64,000 nucleotides of DNA from Thermoanaerobaculia bacterium (GCA_044866775.1 JBIOUG010000142.1:1847-65846); one strand, 5' to 3'. Shown: positions 18,164 to 21,472, counted from the stretch's first letter. Notes: generated by a model from the letters alone, not told the origin. Program-made: numbers and translations.

Positions 18164-21100
18164 TCATGACGCCGCCTCTCGGGGACTGCCACCGCCGGTC
18201 TCTGCCGGCGGAGGTTGAAGCGTGGCGTTGGCGAGCTGGGCGGCCGCGAGCTGCTGGTACAGCCCGGGGCGCTCGGCCAGCTCGTCGTGGGTGCCGGCGT
18301 CGACGATGCGGCCGCGATCGAGGACGAGGATCCGGTCCGCGTCGCGGATCGTGCTCAGGCGGTGGGCCGCCACGATGCGGGTCATCGCCAGCCGCTGGAG
18401 GTTGCGCTGCACCTTCTGCTCGGTGACGGCGTCGAGGGCGCTCGTCGCCTCGTCGAGGATGAGCACCGCCGGCCGCGTCACCAGCGCCCGGGCGAGCGCG
18501 ATGCGCTGCCGCTGGCCGCCCGAGAGCGAGGCGCCGCCGTCGGCGAGCACCGTCTCGTAGCCCATCGGCAGCGCGGCGATGTCGTCGTGGATCTCGGCCA
18601 GCTTGGCGGCCTCCACCACGCGCTCGAGCGGCAGCGCCGGGTCCTGCAGCGCGATGTTGGCGCGGATGCTGGTGCCGAAGAGGAACGACTGCTGCGGCAC
18701 GTACGCCAGGTGGCCGCGCAGCCAGTCGCGCGGCAGCTCCGCGAGCGGGCTCCCGTCGTAGAGCACGTGGCCGGCCTGGGCGTCGAGGAGGCCGGCGACG
18801 ACTCCGGCGAGCGTCGACTTGCCCGAGCCGGAGGCTCCGGCCACGGCGACGAGCTGCCCGGGCTCGACCGCGAAGGAGACGTCCTCCAGCGCCGGCGGCA
18901 CCAGCGGCCCATAGCGGAAGGTGACCGCTTCCAGAGTGATCCGGCCGGCGAAGACCGCGGGGCGCGGCCACTCCAGGCCGTCGGGCTCGGCGGGTGTGGA
19001 GAGCACGTCGTCCAGGCGCTCGAGATAGCTGCCGAGAAGCTGGAACTGGGCGGCGTTGGTGACCAGCATCGAGAGCGGCGCGAGGAAGCCGCTCGCCAAG
19101 GCGGCGAGCGAGAGCATGGTGCCGAGCGTCAGGTCGCCCGCCATGACCCGCGCTCCGCCGTAGAGCAGGACGGCGAGCGGCGAAGCGAGGGCGAGACCGT
19201 CGACGAGGGCGTTGACGAGCGCGTCGAGGCGGCCGCGGGCGAGCGAGGCGTTGAGCTCGCGCACGAAGAGGTGCGACCAGGTGTCGACCGCCCGCCGCTC
19301 GGCGCCGCAGGCCTTGAGCGCCTCGATGCCGGCGAGGAGCTGGACCTGGTAGCCCTGCGACGCCGCCTGCGCCTCGAGCGCCTCCGAGGTGAGCCGCCGG
19401 CGGCGGCGCATGGCGCCGATCAGGATCGCCACCCGGACCACCGCGAGGCCGGCGACCAGCGCGCCGAGACGGAGATCCGCCAAGAGCAGCAGCGCGAGGT
19501 ACGACGCCACCATCAGCCCGTCGAGCGCGCCGGAGAGGACGGCGGAGGTGAGGATCTCGCGGATGGTGGCGTTGCTCGCCAGGCGCGTCAGCAGGTCGCC
19601 GGCCGACCGCTGCTGGAAGAAGGCGAACGGCAGGCGCACCAGGTGCTCGACGAAGTCGAAGGAGAGCTGGGCGTCGATGCGGGTGCGCAAGGCGAGGAGG
19701 ATGCGGGCGCGCAGCAGGGTGACGACGAGGGCGAAGCCGGCGAGCGCCACGGCGCCCAGGGCGAGCACCGTGAAGAGCCGGTGATCGCCGCGCGGGATGA
19801 CGCGGTCGACGAGGAAGCCGGTCAGCAAGGGGACCGCGAGAGCGCCGAGCTGGAGCAGCACCGAGGCGACGAGAATGCGGGCGAGCGCCGCGTTGTGCCG
19901 CAGCACGCGGCGCAGGTAGCGGCCGAGGAGCGAGGAGCGCTGGCCGCCGGGCTCGAAGTCGGGGCCGGGCTCGAAGGTCAGCGCGACGCCGGTCAGCGCC
20001 CGGTCGAGCTCGGCGCGCAGCACGAAGCGGCGGCCGTAGCCGGGGTCGAGGATCCAGGCGCCGCGGCGCTCGAACCGCTCCAGCACCACGAAGTGGTTGA
20101 AGCCCCAGTGCAGGATGGTGCCGGGGTCGAGCAGGGCGAGGTCTTCCGGCTCGCCGACCTGGACGCCACGCCCGCGCAGGCCGAAGTGGTTCGCCGCGCG
20201 GAGCAGCGTCTGTGCGTCCAGGCCGTGACGGGCGCTTCCCGTCACCCGGCGCACCTGCTCGAGCGACACGGTCTTGCCGTGCCAGCCGAGGCTCATCGCC
20301 AGGCAGGCGGCGCCGCAGTCGGCAGCGGCCGCCTGCGGCACGTAGCGAAGGCGCCGGCGGCCGGTGCTGAGCGCCGCGAGGAGCGGCCGGGCCCCCGCGC
20401 CGGAAGGCCGCTCGAGCTCGTCCAGCGCCCGGCTGCGGAAGGGATTCCGCCGCGTCGCGGCGGCGGCCGGCGGCTCATCCGCTGCGGCCGCCGGGGCGGC
20501 ATCGGCGCCGCCCGCGATCCACGGCGTCAGGTAGGGAGCGAGGTGTGCCGCAACGGTTTCGAGGGCCGCGGCCGCCGCCGGCTCGAACGCGGGCTCCGCG
20601 GCCGGGCGGAGCGCGGTCAGCACCGCCACGACCTCGCCGTCGCCGGCGCGCACGGGCACGGCGAGGAAGCGGTCGCTCGCTTCGCCATCCGGGTCGTCGA
20701 GGTCGCGGTCGAAGCGTGGGTCGTCGCCGATCCGGGGGAGACGGAGCGTGCGCCCGGTGCGGAGGACGAAGCTGACCAGCCCGACGGCCGGGCTGTGCCG
20801 CGTCTCCGCGTCGGCGGCCGGGGCCCACAGCGCCTGCCGCTCGCGGTCGAAGAGAACGCAGTGGCCGCGCCGGGCCCCAGCCGCGCGGGCTGCGGCCGCG
20901 CCGGCCGCGCCGGCGAGATCCGCCGCCGTCGCCGCGATCGCCAGCCGCTGGAGGGTGCCCGCGGGCAGCAGGCGATCGAGCGCGAGAGACGGGGGAGCGG
21001 CTTGTCCCGCCGCCGGGTCGGTCCGCTGCCGCAGGGCGCCGGCCGCGCTCGCGATCAGGCCGGCGGCGTCGGCGTCGGAGAGCGCAACGGGCGCGACGTA

Positions 21101-21472
21101 GAACAGCCCGTCGTCGTCGATCAGCTCCTGCAGCTCGGCGAGGTCACTGGCGCCGGCGAGCACGATGCTGAGGCAGGCGGTGCGCGGGGCGTCGCGCCGC
21201 AGCGTCGCGACCGCCGCCCGCACCTGCCGCGGCGAGGAGCCGGGGGCGAAACAGAGGACGGCGGCGGCATGCGCGGCGGCCTGCGCCGCGAGTCGACCGG
21301 CGCCATCCGCGGCGACCAGCGGGACGTCGCGGCCCGCGAGGAGCCGCTGCACGCCGGGCGGCGGCCCCTCCGGCCCGATCCAGAGGACCGGCACCGGCGC
21401 CGGCGGGCGGCACGCAGGGTCTTCGCTCTGCTCCTGGCTAAGGGATTCGCCCGAGCTCTGGCCGAAAGGCAT
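18164..21472 (-). CDS. lanT: peptidase C39 domain-containing bacteriocin/lantibiotic ABC exporter (LanT) with ~370-aa N-terminal sensor-like extension
   Basis: C39 motifs are AADCGAACLAMSL (Cys), NHFVVLERF (His) and ILDPGYG. Six-TM exporter region. Walker A GASGSGKST, signature LSGGQRQRIALARAL, Walker B LILDEATSALD. N-terminal residues ~165-315 are GAF-like (GLVSFVLRTGRTLRLPRIGDDPRFD...RFLAVPVRAGDGEVVAVLTAL). Confidence 0.85.
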   Translation of the reverse strand: MPFGQSSGESLSQEQSEDPACRPPAPVPVLWIGPEGPPPGVQRLLAGRDVPLVAADGAGRLAAQAAAHAAAVLCFAPGSSPRQVRAAVATLRRDAPRTACLSIVLAGASDLAELQELIDDDGLFYVAPVALSDADAAGLIASAAGALRQRTDPAAGQAAPPSLALDRLLPAGTLQRLAIAATAADLAGAAGAAAARAAGARRGHCVLFDRERQALWAPAADAETRHSPAVGLVSFVLRTGRTLRLPRIGDDPRFDRDLDDPDGEASDRFLAVPVRAGDGEVVAVLTALRPAAEPAFEPAAAAALETVAAHLAPYLTPWIAGGADAAPAAAADEPPAAAATRRNPFRSRALDELERPSGAGARPLLAALSTGRRRLRYVPQAAAADCGAACLAMSLGWHGKTVSLEQVRRVTGSARHGLDAQTLLRAANHFGLRGRGVQVGEPEDLALLDPGTILHWGFNHFVVLERFERRGAWILDPGYGRRFVLRAELDRALTGVALTFEPGPDFEPGGQRSSLLGRYLRRVLRHNAALARILVASVLLQLGALAVPLLTGFLVDRVIPRGDHRLFTVLALGAVALAGFALVVTLLRARILLALRTRIDAQLSFDFVEHLVRLPFAFFQQRSAGDLLTRLASNATIREILTSAVLSGALDGLMVASYLALLLLADLRLGALVAGLAVVRVAILIGAMRRRRRLTSEALEAQAASQGYQVQLLAGIEALKACGAERRAVDTWSHLFVRELNASLARGRLDALVNALVDGLALASPLAVLLYGGARVMAGDLTLGTMLSLAALASGFLAPLSMLVTNAAQFQLLGSYLERLDDVLSTPAEPDGLEWPRPAVFAGRITLEAVTFRYGPLVPPALEDVSFAVEPGQLVAVAGASGSGKSTLAGVVAGLLDAQAGHVLYDGSPLAELPRDWLRGHLAYVPQQSFLFGTSIRANIALQDPALPLERVVEAAKLAEIHDDIAALPMGYETVLADGGASLSGGQRQRIALARALVTRPAVLILDEATSALDAVTEQKVQRNLQRLAMTRIVAAHRLSTIRDADRILVLDRGRIVDAGTHDELAERPGLYQQLAAAQLANATLQPPPAETGGGSPREAAS

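Follow-up and report, generated by a model that had tools for sequence, protein, structure and literature searches.

The export of peptides that are made on ribosomes and modified after translation (RiPPs) and of bacteriocins is usually regarded as being regulated at the transcriptional level, through LanRK or quorum sensing. N-terminal sensory domains on peptidase-containing ATP-binding cassette (ABC) transporters (PCATs), as in HetC, and GAF-HlyD proteins are nevertheless already known. In Nostoc PCC 7120, the N-terminal domain of the PCAT HetC, which is of the cyclic nucleotide monophosphate (cNMP) type, binds ppGpp in vitro and is needed in vivo (PMC10986499). Proteins combining GAF, HlyD, and biotin_lipoyl domains occur in SecA_DEAD/Peptidase_M50 loci, where a regulatory or sensory role has been suggested and the function was called unclear (PMC4452313). 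In the hemolysin exporter, the N-terminal region of the membrane fusion protein (MFP) HlyD and its acidic cluster contact the C39-like domain and transmembrane (TM) helices 1-2 of HlyB (PMC11026475). Here, we describe a C39-ABC exporter gene lying within a lanthipeptide operon of an uncultured soil-type bacterium (Thermoanaerobaculia), on the 64,000-nucleotide stretch GCA_044866775.1 JBIOUG010000142.1:1847-65846 (hereafter the window, with positions counted from its first letter). The whole gene (18164..21472, minus strand, as are all exporter features below; delimited by open reading frame (ORF), Pfam domains, and GC content at third codon positions, GC3) encodes 1102 amino acids (aa) in the order pseudo-receiver, GAF, MFP relic, C39 peptidase, transmembrane domain, and nucleotide-binding domain. 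Our analysis traces the N-terminal extension to the exporter's own MFP partner, and we hold this account of its anatomy and evolutionary origin with high confidence. HetC is the only PCAT we found with a functionally tested sensory domain; the present locus adds a second sensory-type module, unrelated to that of HetC and physically attached to the exporter.

Approximately 375 aa stand ahead of a C39-ABC exporter of normal size. The Pfam boundaries place the C39 domain from aa 376, in agreement with the preliminary description of this DNA, which had put its start at about residue 375 of the 1102-aa ORF and likened the remainder to a normal exporter; the strings and coordinates quoted there were also correct (aa 165-315 correspond to 20528..20980). 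A GAF domain occupies aa 165-320 (20513..20980; core motif RTG…DDPRFDRDLDDPDG…DRFLAVPV), as assigned by phmmer against the PDB, the NCBIfam NifA model, Pfam matches of homologues, and Foldseek. A Pfam scan of aa 1-375 alone returned no family at E<=1, leaving the GAF profiles PF01590, PF13185, and PF13492 unmatched, and the sole curated match of the window sequence was the GAF region of NCBIfam NifA (E=2.6e-4). In the phmmer search, aa 199-296 aligned with the GAF domain of the HD-GYP protein 4mcw (E=5.6e-8), sharing with it the stretch 'DPRFDRD(L/I)D', and more weakly with PDE10A GAF-B (3.6e-4) and NifA (4e-4). At the aligned position, Pfam GAF, GAF_2, or GAF_3 was matched by all first-round homologues (10/10) and by most fused orthologues. 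The AlphaFold2 (AF2) model had a mean predicted local distance difference test score (pLDDT) of 75.8, with values of ~80-93 across most of aa 165-320. Its Foldseek comparison yielded 41 PDB matches at E<=1e-3, all GAF-containing, the best ones at a probability of 1.0; these included 4mcw, Lcd1 with cAMP, PDE10A, DosS/DosT, PDE2/5/6, and CyaB2, and template modeling (TM) scores normalized to the target were 0.56-0.71 for single-domain GAF targets. The core motif (DPRFDRDxD…) is nearly invariant within the family. The preliminary description had read residues ~165-315 as GAF-like and would have counted a failure of profile searches against that reading; the direct Pfam search indeed came back empty, but the evidence from homologues, PDB sequences, and fold overturns the objection, and the GAF assignment is borne out.

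Ahead of the GAF domain, aa 27-155 (21008..21394) form a receiver (REC)-like domain without the phospho-acceptor Asp (Ala76), as indicated by AF2, Foldseek, and a family profile. The AF2 model showed a (beta-alpha)5 unit over aa 29-151 (five E-H repeats by DSSP; pLDDT 84, predicted TM-score 0.75), and the best Foldseek matches of this N-domain were the atypical receivers of CpaE, followed by the true receivers KdpE, PhoP, Spo0F, DctD, and NtrC. A profile (A4) built from 32 diverse family members and run against the PDB matched HupR (1.2e-9), 3hv2 (1.5e-9), 6swl (5e-6), and NtrC (0.01) over profile positions 2-120. Pfam found nothing on the N-domain of the window protein itself, and Response_reg was touched in only 2 of the 32 members, at E>=0.027. 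In the HupR alignment, the DD pair was replaced by G-f, the phospho-acceptor D by G (Ala76 in the window, 'VLCFAPG'), and the K by r/g. As none of these three sites, the acidic pair, the phospho-acceptor Asp, and the Lys of beta5, keeps its receiver residues, canonical phosphorylation is not expected, and the domain is classed as a pseudo-receiver, homologous to REC by profile and predicted fold. The CheY-like fold proposed earlier for residues ~27-135, lacking a phospho-acceptor Asp ('AVLCFAPG'), therefore agrees with both the AF2 fold and the HupR profile alignment. TAL-effector repeat matches to aa 47-90 (about 21203..21334; alpha2/beta3) in the PDB search (E ~1e-6) were attributed to Ala-rich composition and dismissed, as they consisted of numerous weak, repeated stretches and the fold gave them no support. 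As separate observations, Cys74 in pseudo-receiver beta3 ('VLCFGPG'; about 21251..21253) and Cys205 in GAF beta1 ('RGRCVLFD'; about 20858..20860) show little or no variation within the close family, in which 'GC(T)' near the N-terminus is also frequent; a redox or metal role for the two cysteines is conceivable.

The remainder of the extension reveals where the module came from. An Ala/Pro-rich linker (aa 321-342; 20447..20512), recognized by pLDDT <50, a nearly neutral ratio of nonsynonymous to synonymous substitution rates (dN/dS, 0.78), and a length that varies among orthologues, is followed by NPFRSRALDELERPSGAGARPLLA (aa 343-366; 20375..20446), which alignment with split relatives identifies as what is left of an HlyD/CvaA-type MFP's cytoplasmic N-terminus. 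The relic begins with 'PFRSRALDELE…' and has a dN/dS of 0.39. In the split relatives, the corresponding 'PFRxRALRELExPxxAGxEPLRLxPxWT' is directly followed by a TM helix and HlyD_3/HlyD_D23/lipoyl domains, and it is on this ground that we assign the motif to the MFP cytoplasmic N-terminus. In the window protein, no hydrophobic segment was detected in aa 1-375 (maximum KD19 of 1.51 vs. >1.8 for real TM segments), and neither an HlyD nor a Biotin_lipoyl Pfam match was obtained, in contrast to the split relatives. The window protein is hence predicted not to be an MFP and to carry an MFP relic only. Since the extension lacks a TM helix, the module should lie in the cytoplasm together with the adjoining C39 domain. 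The fusion junction, or former PCAT head (aa 367-375, ALSTGRRRL; 20348..20374), resembles the '…FPALAALIPTRRRIRFVPQ' of long-form stand-alone PCATs, and the window sequence after the relic motif, AALSTGRRRLRYVPQ, likewise reads as the N-terminal head of such proteins. The pseudo-receiver and GAF parts of the earlier anatomy thus stand, while the MFP relic and the origin from the MFP partner had been missed.

A locus scan restricted to one genome per species recovered 18 loci, nearly all from metagenome-assembled genomes of Acidobacteriota (Thermoanaerobaculia, Holophagales). The best was 53% identical, from which it follows that the window's own species is absent from this set. All 16 scanned loci that also hold a PCAT encode it in an ORF of its own, in another frame than the module. 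The module-bearing proteins fall into three grades: a long grade of ~600-650 aa with a full MFP (L001, L005, L006, L007, L015, and L016), a short grade of ~380-490 aa with a TM helix and a short periplasmic tail (L004, L008, L009, L011, and L014), and a minimal grade of ~330-350 aa in which the TM helix is followed by a stop (L010, L012, and L013). Sister lineages display a stepwise truncation of the periplasmic part of the MFP, with the cytoplasmic module always kept and the adjacent PCAT intact, which suggests that the periplasmic part became dispensable in the lanthipeptide clade. In the two shortest minimal-form proteins (P0007 and P0009), the beta2/alpha1 region is missing from the N-domain as well. 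Alignment A1 shows P0001, P0003, and P0004 to carry the module, then the motif, a TM helix, and HlyD domains, and L001 and L004 are collinear with the window, in the order module-MFP, PCAT (8 bp overlap), (lanA), lanC, lanB. L001 (15301..21806) additionally contains two LanA genes and then a second LanB besides its first LanC-LanB pair, with a short MFP-like gene and a radical-SAM-like gene divergently upstream.

A word-indexed search with the module had returned 10 relatives and underestimated the family; it was superseded by a profile search run exhaustively over 1.84 billion representative proteins, which found at least 188 clusters at E<=1e-30, mostly of 500-750 aa and most of them matching the whole module. 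Six of ten sampled clusters combine the module with HlyD domains, two of these six adding an N-terminal PilZ domain, and in three further members that were sampled, the gene overlaps a C39-ABC gene downstream of it, within peptide-biosynthesis neighborhoods that otherwise differ. The PilZ, pseudo-REC, GAF, and HlyD architecture was seen in P0158 (L028, 8001..10250), near which lies a TolC-like OEP gene, and in P0249. Public annotations of the family read 'GAF domain-containing protein', 'membrane fusion protein', or 'ABC-type bacteriocin/lantibiotic exporter'.

A search that used the full-length protein as query retrieved 13 further fused proteins (P0012-P0022, P0025, and P0040) with 63-78% identity and GAF, C39, and ABC domains, so that a one-off deletion or assembly artefact unique to the window could be ruled out. 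The junction 'PFRxRALxELExPxGxxAPLL…RRRIRYVPQ' is common to all 14 fused proteins. Loci of fused relatives (L023-L025) share the T-A-C-B operon and contain no gene for an MFP, L025 being syntenic with the window across at least 13 genes. In neighbor-joining trees of the PCAT part alone (707-709 columns, 200 bootstraps), the fused clade was monophyletic in 200/200 and 198/200 replicates and nested among split forms, with the long-MFP loci branching more basally. The alignments indicate that in this clade a deletion removed the TM and periplasmic parts of the MFP and joined the module and its motif to C39; most parsimoniously, this was a single in-frame deletion between the MFP 'EPLRL' and the PCAT-head 'FPALA' in a long-form ancestor, retained since. 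Another GAF-C39-ABC protein, P0256 (1077 aa; L026, 1112..4345), has a different junction, and its PCAT grouped with the first fused clade in 0/200 bootstraps, on which basis it is taken to represent a second, independent fusion. Its locus lacks LanB and LanC and adjoins DUF8575 and LOG/LDcluster4-like genes.

Long open frames are common at 75% GC, and the exporter gene itself is spanned by an antisense ORF of 1197 aa (18215..21808, plus strand), which we rejected as a high-GC artefact given that the GC3 signature favors the minus-strand frame. The same bias could make the long exporter ORF an annotation artefact with its true start just 5' of C39, for example at GTG378 (20341), a codon that lines up with position 5 of the TIGR03796 model. 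This codon is the sole plausible internal start, and no Shine-Dalgarno (SD)-like sequence precedes it, whereas a GGAG tetramer (21477..21480) lies 4 nt 5' of the ATG at 21472, as previously described. The earlier statement that no in-frame Met or SD separates the extension from C39 likewise holds, since the first ATG after codon 1 encodes M393, downstream of the catalytic Cys386. A coding signature is present from codon 1 onward, with GC3 of 0.84-0.96 and the lowest GC content at second positions (GC2) throughout aa 1-375, matching the pattern in the rest of the gene, and ~210 nt of intergenic DNA of lower GC lie upstream of the ATG. The start is also kept in the syntenic orthologue P0012, whose 'MPFG' N-terminus is identical. 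Against this orthologue (dS ~0.45-0.55, unsaturated), dN/dS was 0.42 for aa 1-375, 0.44 for the N-domain, and 0.37 for the GAF domain, compared with 0.23 for the PCAT body. The GC3/GC2 signature, the low-GC upstream DNA, the conserved 'MPFG', the dN/dS of 0.42, and the fused relatives together argue that the extension is no cheap open frame; by these measures it is coding and under purifying selection, beyond what a chance frame in high-GC DNA would give. As the extension is moreover homologous to real proteins (41-57% identity) and has a confidently predicted fold, we consider a mis-called start highly improbable. A different doubt is that the extension, though translated, is a functionless remnant that the MFP gene left behind when a deletion destroyed it. 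The relaxed constraint (0.42 vs. 0.23, with the linker nearly neutral at 0.78), a window GAF domain below Pfam detection, and the loss of the MFP itself would fit such a relic, but the frame has stayed open, with an unchanged junction, in 14 lineages whose identity reaches as low as 63%, the dN/dS of both domains is well below 1, and the core motifs are invariant. The fusion arose a second time independently, and in the minimal split forms the module has survived the loss of the entire periplasmic part. Both explanations thus fit poorly with the conservation, the dN/dS values, and the second fusion, and the relic, despite being somewhat easier to defend than the mis-called start, appears quite improbable.

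Our interpretation is that an MFP-derived pseudo-receiver–GAF module on a PCAT confers ligand-dependent control of cleavage and export, a combined reading toward which we lean slightly. The cytoplasmic N-terminus of an MFP would normally lie against the C39 or C39-like domain, so the module would be positioned beside C39 whether MFP-borne or fused, and would act on the exporter from its cytoplasmic side. The acidic 'ELE' motif, which has been retained, may provide the contact to C39. The probable role of the GAF domain is to bind a small ligand in the cytoplasm, and the pseudo-receiver could act as a phosphorylation-independent dimerization or transmission element. Conformational changes in the module would in this way decide whether the C39 domains and the precursor can dock, and the docking state would in turn govern leader cleavage at the double-glycine (GG) site, the ATPase cycle, and ATP-driven export, providing post-translational control in an operon without LanRK. 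Direct ligand control that could make up for the missing LanRK had already been put forward in the preliminary description, and it stays a proposal here. Coupling to the PCAT is supported by the second fusion (P0256), the unfailing retention of the module, its constant pairing with a PCAT, the contacts of HlyD with HlyB, the precedent of HetC, and the intact catalytic motifs of the exporter, and a signaling role by the PilZ domain, a second sensory-type domain, added in some relatives. For ligand-dependent gating by the module specifically, we judge the case to fall just short of even. Several points weigh against these proposals. The extension is under weaker selection than the transporter body, and full-length translation is inferred from conservation. 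The GAF domain of the window is so divergent that Pfam misses it when it is queried alone, and GAF domains can be purely structural or dimerization modules. The Foldseek matches of the N-domain are weak (E 1e-3 to 4e-2, TM-score ~0.45-0.6), although all are flavodoxin/CheY-like, and the trees are neighbor-joining only. Additionally, the fused loci and the scanned window genes yielded no MFP or TolC-like gene that could explain passage across the outer membrane.

The most serious competitor holds that the module is a protein-interaction element without a sensing function, which holds the leader or precursor, docks LanB/LanC, or stabilizes the PCAT dimer in place of the lost MFP. Such a role would accord with the contact between the cytoplasmic N-terminus of HlyD-type MFPs and the C39-like domain of the transporter, with the CpaE N-domains, the best fold matches of the pseudo-receiver, being protein-interaction domains, and with a LanA leader strikingly conserved over fused and split clusters. 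The sharing of the GAF core motif with ligand-binding GAF domains, its near invariance in the family, and the PilZ domains of some relatives point instead to signaling, and on balance we regard a non-sensing module as unlikely. Docking of LanBC as the sole role is considered less likely, because the pair of module-MFP and PCAT also occurs beside different peptide systems without LanB/LanC. Returning to ligand-dependent control, a broader version, in which a second messenger or metabolite gates the module as a switch and the module constitutes a widespread, undescribed regulatory layer on C39-ABC exporters, delivered via the MFP in most of the ~190 clusters (some of these with an added PilZ domain) or via the transporter in at least two independent fusions, is offered tentatively, as the less probable extension of our proposal. 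If true, the exporter of the window clade would have dispensed with a periplasmic MFP, implying periplasmic release or an unknown outer-membrane route.

The transporter body shows the features expected of an exporter of this type. The C39 double-glycine peptidase (aa 376-504; 19961..20347; Pfam Peptidase_C39, E=3e-24) has Gln380, Cys386, His460, and Asp476 present, the ABC transmembrane domain (aa 533-800; 19073..19876; Pfam ABC_membrane) displays six hydrophobic peaks, and the ABC ATPase (aa 862-1011; 18440..18889; Pfam ABC_tran) retains intact Walker A, signature, Walker B, and H-loop motifs. The best NCBIfam model was the NHLP-type peptidase/permease/ATPase TIGR03796 (NHLM_micro_ABC1), aligned from residue 378; its 654 bits lie below the equivalog cutoff of 853.3, so the exporter is not an equivalog. 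With its catalytic residues present, the protein is nonetheless a member of the PCAT family. It heads a compact four-gene class I lanthipeptide operon on the minus strand, in the order T–lanA–lanC–lanB. The candidate precursor gene lanA (17818..18018, minus strand; 66 aa, AAGGAG SD), identified as an ORF with a conserved leader, encodes the leader MKKQIGRRLSLSKETLRNLSERELAAAVGG, ending in '…ELAAAVGG', and a Cys/Thr-rich core, ATTTCCGTTSGCTYASECHCATDSCTGYTTDCSNCC, of 36 aa with 9 Cys, 13 Ser/Thr, and a CC terminus. The VGG is kept in six orthologous peptides, and the orthologous precursors gave weak Lant_leader_dom matches; between fused and split loci the leaders hardly differ, whereas the cores are variable and terminate in …CC or …C. 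The lanC cyclase gene (16438..17706, minus strand; 422 aa; Pfam LANC_like, E=1.2e-36) is followed by the lanB dehydratase gene (13121..16441, minus strand; 1106 aa; Lant_dehydr_N 1.8e-171, Lant_dehydr_C 1.3e-61), whose ATG overlaps the lanC stop (ATGA). The presence of LanB and LanC beside the precursor and exporter identifies the locus as a class I lanthipeptide gene cluster. A scan of window genes that took in part of the small ORFs turned up neither a two-component system nor an MFP or TolC-like gene.

Directly upstream of the exporter (21684..22851, minus strand), genes for an MBL-fold hydrolase (249 aa) and an ArsR-family regulator (115 aa) occupy a position conserved in the syntenic locus L025. 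Some 6-10 kb beyond lanB lie an IS110-family transposase fragment (3246..3962, plus strand) and an S8 subtilase gene (5256..6704, plus strand), and regional GC falls to 0.59-0.64 at the left end of the window. An ECF-type sigma factor beside a VWA/YfbK-C protein (25218..28036, minus strand) and a 1137-aa CHAT-domain protein (28342..31755, plus strand) are unrelated to the exporter finding.

Since the module usually resides on the MFP partner, across a family of considerable size, C39-ABC exporters may generally have a site of control in the cytoplasm. The natural series from full MFP through truncated MFP and TM-anchored module to transporter fusion provides ready constructs for studying the function of the MFP N-terminus, and the fused loci make one ask by what route a lanthipeptide leaves a diderm cell that lacks an MFP for it. 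In genome mining, the locus flags class I lanthipeptide clusters of Thermoanaerobaculia as ones whose heterologous expression may depend on a ligand.

In the literature, mostly outside subscription journals, we found no description of a GAF or REC-GAF fusion to a PCAT, nor of a REC-GAF-MFP/PCAT family. The dual-sensor histidine kinase 6oaq/6oap has the same order of receiver and then GAF, and our model aligns with it over 321-334 columns, yet the relative domain orientation differs (root-mean-square deviation ~18 Å), and the kinase combines a phosphorylatable receiver, a bilin-binding GAF, and a kinase output, whereas the window protein has a degenerate receiver and an exporter output. With NisT/LanT, PCAT1, ComA, CvaB, and the NHLP-type TIGR03796 exporters, the window protein shares the C39 domain, six TM segments, nucleotide-binding domain, and catalytic residues, and its locus resembles theirs in the GG-type leader of the adjacent precursor and the LanB/LanC neighbors; none of these exporters has a 375-aa REC-GAF N-terminal extension. 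The 'PFRxRALxELE…EPLRL' motif is common to the window protein and HlyD/CvaA-type MFPs, but the former is without the TM anchor and periplasmic domains. Compared by their description, the GAF-HlyD proteins of the SecA_DEAD loci carry GAF at the N-terminus of an HlyD-type protein, as in the module-MFPs, although their partners are SecA_DEAD and Peptidase_M50 rather than a PCAT, and no receiver-like domain was described. The closest characterized analogue is HetC, likewise a C39-ABC exporter with a cytoplasmic domain of ligand-binding type N-terminal to the peptidase; proteins with cNMP_binding, C39, and ABC domains also appeared among our distant matches (P0042 and P0045), and together with the literature these agree with the statement in the preliminary description that cNMP fusions to such exporters are known and GAF fusions are not. 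The domain of HetC is of the cNMP-binding type, whereas the window protein has a pseudo-receiver and GAF with no PF00027 match in Pfam, and the two differ in origin, the window module being MFP-derived with the MFP motif retained. Their cargoes differ as well, a proposed differentiation signal for HetC and a predicted class I lanthipeptide for the window exporter, and we read the resemblance between the two proteins as functional analogy only.

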